Shown one piece after another: positions 4,501 through 45,457 of a DNA stretch of 64,000 nt; position 1 is the stretch's first letter, and every line of letters begins with the position of its first letter. The notes below the pieces were generated by a model. It was not told the origin of the DNA. It worked only from the letters and a program-made list of their open reading frames with translations, and did not search any database. This DNA is from Escherichia coli (GTDB lineage Bacteria > Pseudomonadota > Gammaproteobacteria > Enterobacterales > Enterobacteriaceae), in assembly GCF_050920415.1 (NCBI RefSeq), contig NZ_CP169309.1, one strand, 5' to 3'. Made by a program: the position numbers and the translations under genes.

Positions 4501-7392
<2,892 letters not shown>

Positions 7393-18943: not shown

Positions 18944-20677
18944 TTACATACGCTCTACTGTCTCAATACCCAGCGTATCCAGGCCCAGCTTCAGCGTCTT
19001 CGCCGTCAGTTGTGCCAGTTTCAGACGACTGTTACGCACTTCTTCGTTTTCTGCGCTGAGGATCGGGCAGTGCTCGTAGAAGCCAGAGAACAGACCGGCC
19101 AGATCGTACAGGTAAGCACACATCACGTGCGGCGTGCCTTCACGGGCAACCACAGTGAGGGTTTCTTCAAACTGCAGCAGGCGAGCTGCCAGTTGCGCTT
19201 CACGATCTTCACGGATGATTACCGGAGCTGCAGCCAGTTGCTCTTCGTCAATTTCTGCTTTACGGAACACGGACAATACACGCGTGTAAGCATACTGCAT
19301 GTATGGCGCGGTATTACCCTCAAACGCCAGCATGTTGTCCCAGTCGAAGATGTAGTCAGTGGTACGGTTTTTGGAGAGATCTGCGTATTTAACCGCACCA
19401 ATACCAACCGCATTAGCCAGTTTTTCCAGCTCATCGGCTGGCATATCCGGGTTCTTCTCTGCCACCAGACGGCGTGCGCGTTCCAGGGCTTCATCCAGCA
19501 GATCGGCCAGTTTCACCGTACCGCCAGCACGCGTTTTGAACGGTTTGCCGTCTTTGCCCAGCATCATGCCGAACATATGGTGTTCCAGCGGTACGGATTC
19601 CGGCACATAGCCTGCTTTACGGACGATCGCCCACGCCTGCATCAGGTGTTGATGCTGACGGGAGTCGATGTAATACAGCACGCGATCGGCATGCAATGTT
19701 TCATAACGATATTTCGCACAGGCGATATCAGTGGTGGTGTAGAGATAGCCACCATCTTTCTTCTGAATGATCACGCCCATCGGTTCGCCTTCCTTGTTTT
19801 TGAACTCATCAAGGAATACGACGGTTGCGCCTTCGCTTTCTACAGCCAGACCTTTGGCTTTGAGATCAGCCACGATACCCGGCAGCATCGGGTTGTACAG
19901 GCTTTCGCCCATCACGTCATCACGAGTCAGCGTCACGTTCAGACGATCGTAGGTGATCTGGTTCTGCGTCATGGTGATGTCGACCAGTTTGCGCCACATC
20001 TCACGGAAGTATTCGTCACCGCTTTGCAGTTTTACCACGTAGTTACGTGCACGCTCAGCGAACGCTTCATCTTCATCGTAATGCTTTTTCGCATCGCGGT
20101 AGAAACCTTCAAGATCAGCCAGCTCCATTTCACCGGCATTTTCCTGCTGCTGCTTTTCCAGCCATGCAATCAGCATACCGAACTGAGTGCCCCAGTCGCC
20201 GACGTGGTTTGCGCGAATCACTTTGTGACCGAGGAACTCCAGAGTACGCACTGTTGCGTCGCCAATAATGGTAGAGCGCAGGTGACCGACGTGCATCTCT
20301 TTCGCCACGTTTGGCGCAGAGTAGTCAACTACAATGGTCTGTTTTTCTGGCGTAGCAACACCGAGACGATCGGACGCCAGCGCCTGCTGAACATGTTCAG
20401 CCAGGAATGCCGGATCAAGGAAAATGTTGATAAAGCCTGGTCCGGCGATCTCAACCTTGCTGGCGATACCGTTAAGATCCAGATGAGTCAGCACCTGCTC
20501 TGCTAATTGTCGCGGTGCCATACCCAGTTTTTTAGCAACTGCCATCATGCCGTTAGCCTGATAGTCGCCGAACTGAACTTTTGCTGACTGACGAACCTGC
20601 GGTTCGCAATCCGCAGGCGCGCCTGCCGCAATCATGGCCTGACGGACTTTTTCTGAGAGAAGAGCCTGAATATTCAC
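18944..20677 (-). CDS. argS: Arginyl-tRNA synthetase
   Basis: 577 aa, [43 protein letters not shown]...; class I HVGH motif. Confidence 0.97.
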
Positions 20678-20892
20678 CGGAATACCTTACATTGATGAAG
20701 CGAGCAAAAATTGCCCGCACCAGTTAAAGAAATTAGGGCGGGAGTATACTGCAAATGGCTGTTTTCGTCAGCAACGTGCGCGTGGCGTATTGCCGTTTTC
20801 ACCATTGCATCAGAAGCGGCGTGAAATCAGCGGTTGGTTGGCGCAGGGCAACAGGGTAAATTAACGCTTTTACTGAAAGACGAAGAGTGATT

Positions 20893-21463: not shown

Positions 21464-22219
<756 letters not shown>

Positions 22220-22264
22220 TTTTTACCGTTGCATCATGTCGCCCAATATGATGCTTGCTCGTAC

Positions 22265-22298
22265 CAGGCCCCTGCAATTTCAACAGGGGCCTTTTTTT
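22265..22298 (+). terminator. Rho-independent terminator after cutC
   Basis: AGGCCCCTG...CAGGGGCCT hairpin followed by TTTTTTTAT. Confidence 0.7.
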
Positions 22299-41689: not shown

Positions 41690-41943
41690 ACAACCAGACA
41701 ATGACTTTTACCCCTGAACAATTACGCAAACAGGCGCAGGAAATGCTGCGACAGGCGGAACAACTGGAAAAATCAGGCGTAACAAAAGATGCCATTCGTC
41801 GGGATATGGTACCCGCGCTCAGAGAACTGATGCAGGCAAAACACCGCGCACAAAAAGCGGTGGATGAGCTGGTGGATTGTGTGGCAGAGCTGGAAACAAA
41901 AGTTGGAAAATTTGAAAAACTGGTGCAGGAGGTACTGCGCTGA
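41686..41943 (+). CDS. Hypothetical coiled-coil protein (85 aa)
   Basis: ORF between the helicase and Q genes, overlapping both ends. Confidence 0.5.
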
Positions 41944-42308
41944 TGCGTGATATTCAGATGGTTCTTGAGCGTTGGGGGGCGTGGGTGGCAAATAACCACG
42001 AAGATGTTACCTGGTCGTCGATTGCTGCGGGATTCAAAGGACTGATTCCGTCAAAGGTTAAGTCACGTCCGCAATGTTGTGACGATGACGCGATGATCAT
42101 TTGTGGTTGCATGGCTCGTCTGAAAAAGAACAACCGTGACTTGCATGATCTGCTCGTGGATTATTACGTTGGGGGAATGACTTTTATGGCGCTTGCAAGG
42201 AAACATGGACGTTCAGATTGCTGGGTTGGTCGTTTGTTGCAAAAAGCAGAGGGGATCGTGGCTGGTATGTTAATGATGTTGGATGTCAAACTAGAGATGG
42301 AATATTAA
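41943..42308 (+). CDS. Late-gene antiterminator Q (QuuD/phage-82-like family)
   Basis: 121 aa, [34 protein letters not shown]...[16 protein letters not shown]; resembles E. coli DLP12 QuuD as recalled. Confidence 0.75.
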
Positions 42309-42475
42309 TTTAATTCTCATAGAATTCTTTTCTTTATGAGGGGCGAATAATGCCCCTAAACTAGAATATTATAGCTGCCTCATTATCTGGGCAGCATTAG
42401 GTTGTTGAGTGGTTTTCGCTATTAAAGCAATCATTCAAAAGGTATAAAATATGAAGCTGGGTTCTATATTAACGC

Positions 42476-43663
42476 TTACTCCATGCTAAGTGAATCCTGA
42501 TAGCGCTTAAATGCCTCCGCGAAAGCTAGAGCAGCATCAGCATTTGATACCATGTATTCTTCTGTAATGCCTGTTTGGGACTGGAAATATAACTTTCCAT
42601 AAATGCAAATTGGGATTTGATAGTTATCTTTAAATCGTCGGTCTGGTGAGCCATCTTTATTTGTTTTTGCCCATGTATGCCCAGCTATGCTGGCATCACT
42701 CGGAACACCATCCTCTTCATGGAACCCTTGATGCTGCGCATTAATTTGTAATTCCCGTAAGTCAATCAGAGCAAATGCCCCATCGGGGCGAGGAATTACA
42801 GCAATACCCGGATAAAGCAATATATCGTCGCCATTGACATTTTCAAATCGCATTGCTCTTCCAGTAAAACGAATTAGATCTGTTGAAGCGAAATCAAATA
42901 CGACTGGATGACGATCAACTGCTCGTGTAGCTAACGTCCTTTCTGCAAACTGATCTATAGCTTTATCTGCGGTAATATCCCATTTTTTGATACTTGATTT
43001 TAAAATATCGAAAGCACGAATCATTGCTGCATAAGCCCGCTGTGAGGAATCGCTGGTTTCGAAATTAATGACGATTTTAGTGTTATCTTCCCAGGATACA
43101 AGACGAGATACTTCTGCTTGTATTTGTGGTAGCGTTGCTTCAAGTTCTGCAATGCGACGTTTATAAAACCATCGAAACAGGCTTGATTTACGTCGAGCCA
43201 ATTCACTCTTTTGTCTTGATTCTTCTGCAAGAGCCTCTTGTAAGTCAGATGCTATTTCCGCTCTTTGTTCTCGTGCTTTAACGATCAAGTCTCGTAAAGG
43301 TAAAAGAGATGTACTTGTCAAGGCCTCTACTGAGGCACTGGAGATTTCATTCATGCCTGTTTGTGGCATGTACATTTTTGCGTTTGATGGGGTGTTGTCT
43401 GAAATTAACTCGGGTGCATCAATATGAGATTCTACAGACGACGGATTTAGCTGAATGGTTGTGGATGGTTTGTCTTTGTATGGTAAACGAGGGGATGTAT
43501 ACGATAAACCAGATCCTGGTAACCCTAGAGTTGCTTTAATTCCTTTTTGGTTAACATTAACTGTGGCTCCGGGGACACCAAAACTTGCGCTTACCCCATG
43601 TTTACCGATGTTAAGGCGTACTCCGGGGAAAATGGTAAAAGTTTGTCTGAAGCGAAGAGACAT
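42476..43663 (-). CDS. Reverse-strand moron: 395-aa protein with DUF4236-like N-terminus, central coiled coil and unknown C-terminal domain
   Basis: N-terminus MSLRFRQTFTIFPGVRLNIGKHGVSASFGVPGATVNVNQKGIKATLGLPGSGLSYT matches the DUF4236 pattern; AGGGA RBS; oriented against late transcription; AT-rich flanks. Confidence 0.75.
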   Translation of the reverse strand: MSLRFRQTFTIFPGVRLNIGKHGVSASFGVPGATVNVNQKGIKATLGLPGSGLSYTSPRLPYKDKPSTTIQLNPSSVESHIDAPELISDNTPSNAKMYMPQTGMNEISSASVEALTSTSLLPLRDLIVKAREQRAEIASDLQEALAEESRQKSELARRKSSLFRWFYKRRIAELEATLPQIQAEVSRLVSWEDNTKIVINFETSDSSQRAYAAMIRAFDILKSSIKKWDITADKAIDQFAERTLATRAVDRHPVVFDFASTDLIRFTGRAMRFENVNGDDILLYPGIAVIPRPDGAFALIDLRELQINAQHQGFHEEDGVPSDASIAGHTWAKTNKDGSPDRRFKDNYQIPICIYGKLYFQSQTGITEEYMVSNADAALAFAEAFKRYQDSLSME

Positions 43664-43717: not shown

Positions 43718-43855
43718 ACTGCGATGAGACACGAGGCTCATTAAGGATTTTGGCATTTTGCTGACATAAATTCTATAAAAATTATGGTGATAAACGTTTT
43801 ACAATCGTAAAAAAACAAATATGCTGTTAAGAGTGGTACTACGCCACACAGCTTA

Positions 43856-43881
43856 AACCCGCCGATGAGCGGGTTTTTTTG
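43856..43881 (+). terminator. Rho-independent terminator
   Basis: ACCCGC-cgatga-GCGGGT followed by TTTTTTT. Confidence 0.65.
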
Positions 43882-44037
43882 TGCACAGAAAACCCCCAGC
43901 TAGGCTGGGGGTTCCGGAAAGCTTTCAGCTTTGAGCCAGTTATTAAAACCCCTTTTGATTTGTTAAAACACCTTGCGGTCTGGCAACTTCTTAACTCACT
44001 TATTGTTTCCACCCATGTTTTTGGATACCTGCTGTAG

Positions 44038-44074
44038 CTGTCAGATTAGCGCGATAATCTGACAGCTTTTTTTT
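44038..44074 (+). terminator. Strong rho-independent terminator
   Basis: 11-bp stem CTGTCAGATTA...TAATCTGACAG followed by T8. Confidence 0.75.
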
Positions 44075-44363
44075 ACAACGAATCCTTCTGATCTGCTTTT
44101 GCGGGGCTTTTTTGTATCCGCTCCATGCCCGGCGTATAAGCGGAGGTTGGTCAGTTTTCTAAAAATTGAAATACCTCACAATTCAGCCAGTTAATGGTTG
44201 TTTGTCTGGCGAAGAGTTTGTAAATAAAAAAACGCATGGTGAATCCCCCTAAGCGGCGGGGCGAATCAGCAGTCAGTTCTGGGATAATCGCGGGTTCGTA
44301 TGCTGATGCCGGACTCACCGGGAGGCACCCGGCACCATGCATCATGGTCATCCCCTTGTATGA

Positions 44364-44389
44364 TACCCCTCTCCGGAGGGGTATTTTTT
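44364..44389 (+). terminator. Rho-independent terminator
   Basis: TACCCCTC-tccg-GAGGGGTA followed by TTTTTT. Confidence 0.7.
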
Positions 44390-44822
44390 GGATAAAAAAG
44401 CCCGCGCTGGGAGGCACGGGCGGCAAGGAATAAAACGTGAAGAAATTTTCACAGGCGCATAATAATCCGATGTTGCCAGATTTTGCAACTGCATCATCTG
44501 GTTATTATGTGAGCTGGAAAATCAGATTCTGTATGGACTGAAGCCATGCTGTTATTCAGGGCCAAAGAACGGACTTTTTCTTCCGCCTTTCAGGTAACGA
44601 TTAATGAGAAAAAGACTGAAATGCCCCCTCGGGGAGGAGGATAGTAGAAAAAAGAACCCGCCAGCAAAAATATTGGGGGGATGAACAGCTTTCGCTACTC
44701 TGGTTGCTGGCGGGTATAGCTCCTCATGAATAAGAATGTCGCGGTATTTTTTAATGGAAATGAGAATCATTGTCAACTGATTGCGTGTGTTGTCTTCATA
44801 CATGACTGGTAAAGGTGATTCA

Positions 44823-44853
44823 GGCCATCAGAGTTTTGCTGATGGCCTTTTTT
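44823..44853 (+). terminator. Terminator immediately upstream of the holin start (candidate tR'-like late terminator)
   Basis: GGCCATCAG-agttttg-CTGATGGCC followed by TTTTTT; lies inside the extended holin ORF of the ORF track. Confidence 0.6.
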
Positions 44854-44886
44854 CTTTCCGGTAGCACAGGTCTGTCGGGGCGGGAT

Positions 44887-45102
44887 ATGTATCAGATGGA
44901 AAAAATATCAACAGGCATTGCCTACGGCACCTCCGCAGGCAGTGCTGGCTACTGGTTTTTACAGTGGCTTGATCAGGTCAGCCCGTCACAGTGGGCTGCG
45001 ATTGGTGTACTGGGAAGTCTGGTTCTGGGCTTTCTGACTTATCTGACGAATCTGTACTTCAAAATCAGAGAAGACAGAAGAAAGGCTGCGAGAGGAGAGT
45101 AA
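44887..45102 (+). CDS. Holin (EssD/phage-21 S-like, class II)
   Basis: [71 protein letters not shown], 71 aa, closely resembles DLP12 EssD as recalled. Confidence 0.85.
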
Positions 45103-45106
45103 TATA

Positions 45107-45457
45107 ATGGTCCAAAACTATGAAATGATTGTGAAAGGGATCCGCAATTTTGAGAATAAAGTTACGGTAACTTTAGCATTACAGGACAAAGAACGCTTTG
45201 ACGGTGAAATTTTTGACCTGGACATCTCGCTGGACCGTGTTGAAGGTGCCGCGCTGGAGTTTTATGAGGCAGTAGCCAGAAGGAGCATCAGACAGGTCTT
45301 CCTGGATGTTGCTGCCGGGTTATGTGAAGGGGATGAGCAGTCGCCGGAAAAGCGCCCCGTAATTTTAGAGGCGCAGAATGTGTGGATAACCTACAAAGGA
45401 AAGCTACCAGGAAGAATTACTGGTTCTCTGAAGACTCCTCCGGAATCACAACCTTAA
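45107..45457 (+). CDS. Hypothetical protein (116 aa) inserted between holin and endolysin
   Basis: ORF MVQNYEMIVKGIRNFENKVTV... with no TM segment or signal peptide. Confidence 0.5.
   Translation: MVQNYEMIVKGIRNFENKVTVTLALQDKERFDGEIFDLDISLDRVEGAALEFYEAVARRSIRQVFLDVAAGLCEGDEQSPEKRPVILEAQNVWITYKGKLPGRITGSLKTPPESQP

Follow-up and report, generated by a model that had tools for sequence, protein, structure and literature searches.

Predicted late-operon leader of a lambdoid Escherichia coli prophage with its late promoter at a distance from Q

In an Escherichia coli prophage, about 1 kb of DNA with hairpins and no evident gene separates a reverse-strand cargo gene (moron) from the holin gene, which raises the questions of where late transcription starts and what this stretch contains. 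Within the window, that is, the whole stretch of 64,000 nucleotides analyzed (contig NZ_CP169309.1), a first-pass annotation had listed four strong plus-strand rho-independent terminators here, and a consensus scan recovered 4/4 of them at the same positions. The terminator enrichment was directly observed: nine terminator-like sites were found in 43780–44880 versus 1.2 ± 1.0 in dinucleotide shuffles, an approximately 7-fold excess. Beyond the four, the scan returned a strong minus-strand terminator (44421..44400), the hairpin of an IS200 left end (43891–43913), and a further terminator on the minus strand, whose loop is large (arms 44715..44704 and 44667..44656, followed by a U-run). The earlier statement that the stretch lacks a convincing ORF also agreed with our results, as no credible coding sequence was found in it. 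Its ORFs of 50–91 aa matched nothing or only PHROGs of "unknown function", the PHROG-matching ones being ORF calls over the IS200 end or antisense to the STnc100 gene described below, and indels that are not multiples of three break the frames in the alignments of relatives; a coding role was rejected. ARAGORN found no tRNA genes, and the tRNA cluster that Stx phages carry between pR' and cargo is absent. Collectively, the stretch can be regarded with good confidence as the 5' leader of the late operon, with its lysis and morphogenesis functions, in a lambdoid E. coli prophage, and by its sequence matches it is a mosaic of mostly known elements, almost all parts being known from other E. coli phages.

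Position of the late promoter relative to Q

The upstream part of the locus comprises the following features.
41943..42308, plus strand: Q antiterminator gene (121 aa; PF06530; QuuD/H-19B/933W type, Q21 family)
42476..43663, minus strand: moron of 395 aa with a DUF4236 N-terminus, between Q and pR' (from the ORF list)
43798..43825, plus strand: predicted late promoter pR' (-35 TTTACA, 16-bp spacer, -10 TATGCT; promoter scan and alignment)
43839..43846, plus strand: qut equivalent, candidate sigma-dependent pause and Q-loading region (aligned to the 8-bp qut of 933W)
43855..43880, plus strand: terminator 1, promoter-proximal tR'-type hairpin (stem 43855–43876, 8 bp, T-run to 43880)

The Q protein matched Pfam Phage_antitermQ (PF06530) over model positions 1–118 of 118 (E = 2e-51) and the solved Q21 structures 6P18 and 6JNX (phmmer E = 3.5e-9); a designation as "phage-82-like" was rejected, since Pfam and the PDB put this Q with Q21. 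A late-promoter module fitting this type of Q was found at 43798–43880, 1.49 kb past the Q stop codon. The window contains the module only once, and this copy departs from the consensus pattern at no position (0 mismatches). Its promoter agrees with the sigma-70 consensus at 9/12 positions, with a predicted transcription start at ~43832, and the bases aligned to it are annotated as pR' in 933W. Indeed, the 933W annotations of pR', qut, and terminator matched 43798–43880 column by column, and the alignment of the module with 933W, H-19B, and PhiR40_1 gave 82% mean column identity, in which the blocks of the -35/spacer (core TTTAC-ATCGTAAAAA) and of the initial transcribed region are invariant. 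An invariant TAAGAGTGGT motif (43828–43837) lies just upstream of the qut equivalent, which shares 5/8 bases with the 933W qut and may, judging from this alignment, serve as the pause and Q-loading region. Terminator 1, at ~+24 to +49 of the predicted pR' transcript, is homologous to the 933W terminator (annotated 20726–20748) and to hairpins of H-19B, PhiR40_1, and K-12 DLP12, and the predicted pR' leader RNA folds with z = -3.1. These identities and conserved positions are observed directly, whereas promoter activity, pausing, Q loading, and termination efficiencies are predicted from the homology.

Thus, pR', a promoter-proximal qut element, and a terminator are found ahead of the late genes by homology to the 933W annotations, and Q is not immediately beside pR', with the reverse-strand moron between them. 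The first-pass annotation had placed the late promoter and Q-utilization site inside the terminator-rich stretch and away from Q; the distance from Q was borne out, but pR' lies 25–50 bp upstream of the coordinate (43850) at which that stretch had been made to begin. The textbook layout, in which pR' follows immediately on Q at ~42.3 kb and late transcripts cross the moron in antisense, has on its side 933W and H-19B, where Q abuts or overlaps pR', and the way in which the cassette is usually drawn. The 167 bp past the Q stop codon, however, showed no similarity to any pR' module and no promoter-like site in the promoter scan, and they are occupied by two hairpins whose orientation is that of minus-strand terminators for the moron. 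Similarity to other Q genes or loci at the DNA level ends at 42301, and all Q proteins compared diverge directly after "LEM(D/E)". Moreover, pR' is displaced likewise in relatives whose Q proteins are short: the pR' module of ev243 lies ~1.7 kb downstream of Q, and PhiR40_1 has the same order of Q, reverse-strand moron, pR', and holin. Since pR' is displaced also in DLP12, PhiR40_1, and ev243, its adjacency to Q is typical rather than obligatory, and we consider a promoter at ~42.3 kb highly improbable.

The module at 43798–43880 resembles the pR'-qut-terminator cassette of 933W and H-19B in belonging to the same Q family (PF06530) and in the homology of its -35, spacer, -10, initial transcribed region, and first hairpin (78–80% identity over 93 bp). 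It differs in that the cassette of those phages overlaps the 3' end of the Q gene, whereas here it is 1.49 kb off; in that the 3' part of the 258-nt StxS leader and the second terminator are absent, an IS200 remnant standing in their place; and in that no tRNA or stx genes follow downstream. The lysogenic by-product of the 933W/H-19B cassette is the StxS sRNA. In Stx phages, the pR' transcript is reported to extend for 258 nt up to a second terminator (PMC7547250), so that their counterpart of terminator 1 does not stop all polymerase, and whether terminator 1 is called tR' is a matter of definition. K-12 DLP12 (quuD, nmpC on the reverse strand, essD) likewise has a short Q, a reverse-strand moron, a pR' module (84% identity; 4696–4777 of the DLP12 sequence compared), and a class II holin. 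There, however, the module is ~120 nt from essD without sRNA genes or extra terminators between, and the moron is a porin, whereas the one here is a DUF4236 protein (PF14020 at residues 3–56, phrog_17982 over the full length), for which PADLOC gave no match.

Elements between terminator 1 and the holin-proximal element

The following features come next.
43881..43988, plus strand: IS200 left-end remnant (nt 1–108; Rfam STnc490, RF01405)
44036..44075, plus strand: terminator 2, an orphan hairpin (stem 44036–44067, 13 bp, T8 run to 44075)
44205..44393, plus strand: predicted STnc100/PasD-family sRNA gene (Rfam RF02076)
44362–44392, plus strand: terminator 3, that of the STnc100 gene itself (stem 44362–44385, 10 bp)
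44394..44488, minus strand: predicted sRNA gene of the EcOnc42 / "E2348C_1409.E2348C_1408.IGR" type (promoter, terminator, and homology)

The density of structure had earlier been taken as a possible sign of a small structured RNA, and an Rfam search had been suggested. This was borne out by STnc100, above its gathering score (114.5 bits vs 47; E = 1e-25), to which the minus-strand sRNA gene of the EcOnc42 type is added by homology. STnc490 also exceeded its gathering score (72.3 bits vs 56); matches to Trp_leader and anti-hemB (E 0.3–0.8) were taken as chance.

The STnc490 match, in which the last ~25 model positions align poorly, is the left end of an IS200 element, 100% identical to that of IS200C in E2348/69 and 99% identical to the one that phage ev058 carries. 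The junction GTGCACAG right behind the terminator T-run occurs in three independent copies. Nucleotides 1–108 are identical to the IS200 left end, including its hairpin (nt 12–34), which is a published bidirectional terminator (PMC4513863, from which the IS200 anatomy was also taken). The homology ends at element nt 108 (window 43988), whereas the tnpA start is expected near nt 145; unlike a complete left end, the piece carries no transposase gene (tnpA), no complete 5'UTR stem-loop (nt 69–138), and neither the promoter nor the 5' half of art200. Being truncated in this way, it is a relic rather than an sRNA gene, and the hairpin density of the stretch is in part due to this cut-off end. The IS200 insertion and an adjoining deletion removed the original sequence after terminator 1; control of the late operon could have suffered from this, and the prophage may be defective. 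Terminator 2 (fold z = -5.0) is found in relatives ~240 nt 3' of a DNA-methyltransferase moron.

The STnc100 match covers model positions 1–206 of 206, and homology thus predicts an expressed sRNA gene of the STnc100/PasD family at 44205..44393, although the promoter search found no sigma-70 promoter for it. The gene occupies the prophage location of STnc100 (PMC12370729), between Q or toxin cargo and the lysis genes; in 933W (207.7 bits), H-19B (178.6 bits), and a stx1d prophage (64 bits), the family stands directly 3' of stx. STnc100 is related to PasD, and the gene shares with EPEC PasD1/PasD2 the full-length covariance match, a terminator of its own, and a location that Stx phages and E2348/69 also show, between Q and the lysis genes (bioRxiv 10.64898/2026.05.13.724894). 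It differs from the STnc100 of 933W in its lower score, and from STnc100/PasD in a 15-nt deletion in one internal arm; the seed UGUGAG of PasD is absent, and no toxin gene lies upstream.

Converging on the STnc100 terminator from the minus strand, the EcOnc42-type gene has a promoter found by scan (TTGCAA-18-TATTAT, 44488..44459) and a predicted RNA of ~44452..44395 with a terminator at 44421..44400, folding into a 5' hairpin, a single-stranded seed (UUCCUUGCC), and the terminator (z = -5.0). It was aligned with 933W, H-19B, E2348/69, and R1. Compared with the EPEC sRNA detected by RIL-seq, whose target motif is GGCA(A/G)GG (PMC8550237 supplement), the locus showed 77% identity over 218 nt with the seed CCUUGCC and the terminator kept, the 3' ~60 nt including the seed being closely matched; the annotated EPEC interval (E2348C_1409.E2348C_1408.IGR) is, however, 182 nt in length versus the predicted ~58-nt RNA here. 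The position, the convergent orientation, and the similar promoter layout and terminator are those of AsxR, of EHEC EcOnc42/EcOnc21/EcOnc08, and of the EPEC sRNA. In 933W, it is AsxR that abuts STnc100, scoring 88.1 bits with RF02703, whereas no AsxR covariance match was found in the window at E<=1, and the body and seed of AsxR are unlike those here. The gene may therefore be described as a homologue of the EPEC/EHEC EcOnc42-type Hfq sRNA in the AsxR position, with its function, like the expression and targets of the sRNAs here in general, predicted from homology.

Holin-proximal element and terminator 4

The remaining part, 44490–44857, precedes the holin gene.
44647..44776, minus strand: candidate sRNA gene (layout like PasA/PasC)
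44796..44857, plus strand: terminator 4 with its invariant 26-nt 5' flank (stem 44822–44848, 10 bp, followed by a T-run)
44887..45102, plus strand: class II holin gene, the first late gene (sequence and ORF list; dual-start motif M-Y-Q-M)

The holin, annotated as class II in relatives, starts 1,055 nt downstream of the pR' start. Terminator 4 had been described as sitting immediately before it and as the tR'-like terminator; it does lie upstream of the holin, but the ATG is at 44887, ~32 nt past its T-run, and not at 44860, and the tR' position is held by the first of the four terminators (43855–43880). A reading in which terminator 4 (44822–44853) is the tR' equivalent, with pR' and qut shortly upstream inside 43.85–44.8 kb, would account for its being the nearest terminator to the holin and for the invariance of its flank (44796–44821) among relatives. 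Against this, no sigma-70-like plus-strand promoter was found in 43830–44860 even with relaxed rules, and the sole module copy matched to this Q type is that at 43798–43880. Moreover, the block containing terminator 4 (43987–44900) is found again, with 95% identity, behind an unrelated Q of 250 aa; it occurs together with the holin behind unrelated Q types and also directly behind toxin genes, and hence cannot carry a Q-specific qut. Such a role for terminator 4 thus seems very doubtful, and pR' at 43798–43825 is retained. In 933W and in prophages PP4 and PP6 of E2348/69, a homologous terminator stands 30–60 nt ahead of the holin, and E2348/69 PP2 has a terminator in the same position; by these comparisons, terminator 4 is assigned as the holin-proximal terminator belonging to the class II holin module.

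The holin-proximal element is the only unannotated part of the stretch. It occurs in 1430/5426 complete E. coli genomes (about a quarter), with 643 places on plasmids, and it is found on ColV-type plasmids beside iss, annotated nowhere. No exact match of its core was found in one-genome-per-species GTDB contigs or in the phage GenBank collection, and IMG/VR contained only 18 loci with little added diversity. On its minus strand, the promoter scan found TTGACA-17-TAAAAA (44776..44748), from which an RNA of ~95 nt (~44741..44647) would end in a 12-bp terminator stem followed by a U-run (fold z = -3.9); promoter and stem are conserved in five variants from E. coli, as well as in the unit that 933W carries 3' of L0105. 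The best match in the whole window of an nhmmer profile built without the window was this candidate, but at E = 0.05. With PasA/PasC of EPEC and the Esr41-like units between an esterase cargo gene and the holin, it shares the orientation, a location directly ahead of the holin, a -35 that is a perfect TTGACA in similar surroundings, and the terminator stem GCCAGC...GCTGGC; BLAST found no similarity of the candidate to PasA or PasC, and Rfam no Esr41 match in the window. The unit probably contains a second minus-strand sRNA gene. More broadly, that the element encodes undescribed regulatory RNAs is put forward tentatively, at somewhat less than even confidence: either the ~95-nt minus-strand relative of PasA/PasC/Esr41 or, alternatively, a plus-strand RNA in which the 26 nt before terminator 4 would form a single-stranded seed, for which no sigma-70 promoter was found.

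Several known RNAs were rejected as identities for this region. For 44634–44856, SgrS (RF00534) scored 29.4 bits against a gathering score of 37 and Qrr 26.7 bits against 50; neither match was reproduced in three variants of the element (L014, L011, and L015), and both are driven by terminator resemblance. PapR, an sRNA of UPEC, was dismissed on the finding of no near-perfect 22-nt complementarity to papI codons 25–32, with only 8–9-mers shared. In ST131, the element is close to papI.

Proposed course of late transcription and its meaning

Whether the leader still works may be asked on the view that it is recombination debris, its terminators and sRNA-like pieces being relics of lost cargo in an inactive late operon. 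The IS200 remnant is certainly defunct, terminator 2 is an orphan, the exact arrangement of the stretch occurs in 0/5,426 complete E. coli genomes, and copies of the holin-proximal element on plasmids and in ST131 have decayed into relics from which the holin is gone. On the other hand, the Q ORF is intact and of full length versus Pfam, pR' has no mismatch to the conserved pattern, STnc100 matches its full model, the minus-strand EcOnc42-type sRNA keeps promoter, seed, and terminator, and the downstream lysis genes are intact. Debris is thus an unlikely, though the least unlikely, of the alternatives weighed against a late-operon leader.

As a late-operon leader, the stretch would be transcribed from pR' (43798–43825, +1 near 43832), a module matching the PF06530 Q of the prophage, which the reverse-strand moron would have pushed 1.5 kb from the Q gene. 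Without Q, polymerase would halt at terminator 1; those molecules that escape would meet the hairpin of the IS200 left end and then terminators 2, 3, and 4, whereby the holin would stay silent in the lysogen. After induction, Q would load at pR'/qut, and the polymerase would resist all five hairpins over 1,055 nt before the holin ATG. The leader so read would contain, in order, the dead IS200 end right behind terminator 1, terminator 2 as the presumable leftover of a lost moron, the STnc100/PasD-family gene closed by terminator 3, the EcOnc42-type Hfq sRNA gene converging from the minus strand, and the holin-adjacent unit closed by terminator 4. The density of terminators is accounted for by small autonomous units that accumulated between pR' and the holin, and the terminators of the sRNA genes probably double as fail-safes that keep the holin silent in lysogens.

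The result is mainly a correction for annotation and nothing new in principle. Where a prophage has a short Q of the PF06530 family, its late promoter can sit kilobases from Q behind a reverse-strand cargo gene, so predicting pR' "right after Q" fails. The "empty" space ahead of the lysis genes is where mobile Hfq-type sRNA genes collect, namely those of the STnc100/PasD, AsxR/EcOnc42, and PasA/PasC-like types. The practical gain is a base-level map of one leader and a pointer to a widespread unannotated element beside holin and iss; if this element does encode regulatory RNAs, lambdoid prophages would have, directly ahead of the holin gene, a general docking site for sRNA genes that can be exchanged.

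Displacement of the predicted late promoter

The left part of the window was confirmed as E. coli chromosome by matches to two core-genome sRNAs, MicL inside cutC (21991-22298, plus strand, 365.8 bits) and C0465 (7936-8013, minus strand, 77.6 bits), and the torY-cutC-yecM-argS segment agrees with a sequenced E. coli strain at 100% identity. A lambdoid prophage is also present, whose early region (36828-37669, plus strand) contains isrK (RF01394; 58.8 and 61.9 bits) and C4 antisense RNA (RF01695; 83.3 and 80.1 bits) in two tandem pairs, an arrangement suggestive of a P1/P7-type c4/ant immunity module that has been duplicated. Between a 395-aa moron ORF and the class II holin lies a stretch of about 1.2 kb that lacks any credible coding sequence. 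The holin is followed by a YdfR-family gene (45107-45457, plus strand) and then the lysozyme, an order also seen in the related prophages L001, L013, and L014.

Features of the leader and its flanks
41943-42308, Q antiterminator gene (ORF list)
42476-43663, minus strand, 395-aa moron ORF (ORF list)
43855-76, plus strand, stem of terminator 1 (consensus scan)
44036-67, plus strand, stem of terminator 2 (consensus scan)
44362-85, plus strand, stem of terminator 3 (consensus scan)
44421..44400, minus strand, strong terminator (consensus scan)
44776..44748, minus strand, strong candidate sRNA promoter, TTGACA-17-TAAAAA (promoter scan)
44822-48, plus strand, stem of terminator 4 (consensus scan)
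44887, ATG of the class II holin (ORF list)

All four plus-strand terminators claimed by the first-pass annotation were recovered in the consensus scan. Within 43780-44880, to which the scan was limited, nine terminator-like sites were found versus 1.2±1.0 in shuffles; together with the recovered stems, this count shows that the observation is real and rules out a chance effect. Exactly two promoter-like sites were found in the same range, at 43798-43825 (plus strand) and 44488..44459 (minus strand).

The sequence at 43798-43890 aligns with that after or overlapping the end of Q in phages 933W and H-19B, and, in phage PhiR40_1, with sequence located downstream of a reverse-strand gene (mean column identity, 82%). 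The invariant blocks of this module are TTTAC-ATCGTAAAAA (-35 and spacer), TAT..TG.TAAGAGTGG (-10 and initial transcribed region), and a hairpin, AACCCGCCG...GCGG, with a T-run behind it; on the aligned bases, the GenBank entry of 933W carries the labels pR' (20666-20693), qut (20707-20714), and rho-independent terminator (20726-20748). The pR' pattern occurs once in the 64-kb window, with 0 mismatches. This alignment to annotated elements and the single occurrence indicate that terminator 1 is the pR' promoter-proximal terminator, and that the first-pass annotation was mistaken in taking terminator 4 for the tR' equivalent. Its central guess, of a promoter displaced from Q, was correct, with the predicted late promoter 1.49 kb away. 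The 167 bp after the Q stop codon bear no resemblance to any late promoter and contain two hairpins in the orientation of minus-strand terminators serving the moron (42342-42394, adjoining the stop codon). The moron itself has a DUF4236 N-terminus and a full-length match to phrog_17982 (unknown function), and a PADLOC search gave no match for it.

The Q protein is a full-length member of Pfam PF06530, related to the solved Q21 protein, to which this family is assigned in PMC9388147. The DNA similarity of its gene to the Q genes of PhiR40_1, several lambda-like phages, H-19B, and the Stx phages stops at 42301, seven bases before the stop codon, and the Q proteins share LEM(D/E), all diverging directly past it. 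Among the PF06530 proteins compared (window 42299-42308 and relative loci L007, L008, L009, L010, L013, and L016), collinearity up to this motif gives way to unrelated tails of 1-24 residues. Recombination or insertion of cargo between Q and pR' seems to have occurred repeatedly at the codon after LEM(D/E).

The Q/pR' split is not peculiar to this prophage. In DLP12 of K-12, quuD is followed by a reverse-strand gene (nmpC) and then the homologous module (84% identity), ~120 nt before essD; PhiR40_1 has the same split, and in phage ev243 the module is likewise displaced, ~1.7 kb downstream of Q. In Stx phages of strain Sakai, the pR' transcript is reported to measure 258 nt, to end at a second terminator, and to be processed to the StxS sRNA (PMC7547250), so that the first hairpin there is an incomplete stop.

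The IS200 remnant and the predicted small RNAs

Directly 3' of the terminator 1 T-run, 43881-43988 corresponds to IS200 nt 1-108, with 100% identity to the IS200C left end of the EPEC strain E2348/69, 99% to the copy in phage ev058, and 72.3 bits against Rfam STnc490. PMC4513863 describes nt 12-34 of IS200 as a bidirectional terminator against incoming transcription. Since the window copy ends at nt 108, it adds one hairpin (43891-43913) and can provide neither art200 nor transposase. The junction in three independent IS200 copies is GTGCACAG right behind the T-run of an intrinsic terminator (window 43874-43888; relative loci L009, ~495-510, and L004, ~2066-2085), which points to terminator T-runs as a preferred IS200 target.

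At 43988, the sequence passes into a block (43987-44900) shared at 95% identity with many E. coli prophages, in which it lies behind cargo (a DNA methyltransferase or a toxin) and an antitermination protein of another kind, 250 aa long. Terminator 2 opens this block, ~240 nt past the methyltransferase stop codon in relatives, and is without a transcript of its own in the window. In the E. coli R1 prophage (L013, 1702-2876), the interval from this pR' type to this EcOnc42-type/holin-proximal block is occupied by genes for a subtilase-family AB5 toxin B subunit and a scabin-related ADP-ribosyltransferase, marking the slot as a toxin cargo site.

Within the block, 44205-44393 matches the full Rfam STnc100 model with 114.5 bits (gathering score, 47), and terminator 3 is the predicted terminator of this RNA. 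The family lies directly 3' of stx2B in 933W (75 nt past the stop codon, 207.7 bits), of stx1B in H-19B, and of stx1d in another prophage; its location by toxin genes was also noted in PMC12370729, and a 2026 preprint places STnc100 with the EPEC sRNAs PasD1 and PasD2 (bioRxiv 10.64898/2026.05.13.724894). Convergent on STnc100 is a predicted EcOnc42-type sRNA on the minus strand, with a promoter (TTGCAA-18-TATTAT) followed by a ~58-nt predicted RNA whose fold (z=-5.0) has a hairpin at the 5' end, leaves UUCCUUGCC single-stranded, and ends in a terminator. Over the 3'-terminal 60 nt it matches the EPEC RIL-seq sRNA "E2348C_1409.E2348C_1408.IGR", which the RIL-seq authors equate with EHEC EcOnc08/21/42 and whose targets have the motif GGCA(A/G)GG in common (PMC8550237). 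AsxR holds this position in 933W, where promoter and terminator align but the body differs.

The holin-proximal element

The sole part still unannotated is the element at 44490-44857, present in 1430 of 5426 complete E. coli genomes; 643 of its places are on large plasmids, beside Rz/Rz1 remnants and iss. It was not found in the GenBank phage set or the one-genome-per-species contigs. On a ColV-type plasmid (L011, 4001-4487) and an ST131 chromosome (L012, 4001-4467), it is kept at ~82% identity beside Rz/Rz1 remnants and iss/bor, unannotated by PGAP; no holin or lysozyme genes remain there, and the next feature is an IS200-like left end (STnc490, 90.8 bits, in L011).

Terminator 4 and the preceding 26 nt are nearly invariant, even in an stx1d prophage with unrelated upstream sequence. 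In 933W and in prophages PP4 and PP6 of E2348/69, the holin is preceded at 30-60 nt by homologous terminators, and PP2 has a terminator in the same pre-holin position.

The candidate minus-strand sRNA, ~95 nt long (fold z=-3.9), contains a 12-bp hairpin followed by a U-run. Both the promoter and the stem are found again in 933W, immediately 3' of the L0105 esterase gene. The layout is shared with PasA and PasC of E2348/69, both of which are encoded on the strand that opposes late transcription. When a profile was made from the other units alone, its window-wide best match fell exactly at the candidate, at only E=0.05, which leaves membership tentative. Within the candidate, a 10-codon mini-ORF (MRSYTRQQPE*; 44724..44692, minus strand) keeps its frame and stop in four sequence variants; given the lack of a Shine-Dalgarno sequence and the overlap with the terminator stem, its conservation is probably structural.

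Proposed working of the leader

By homology, the leader most likely works as follows. In the lysogen, polymerase started at pR' would be halted at terminator 1 and then at four back-up hairpins, while the sRNA genes would be transcribed from their own promoters to their own terminators, leaving the holin insulated from all sRNA transcription. Upon induction, Q would load at pR'/qut, and the modified polymerase would pass every hairpin up to the lysis genes, terminator resistance being an established property of Q proteins. Collectively, the observation is a genuine one of an ordinary kind, a late-operon leader built from modules already known.
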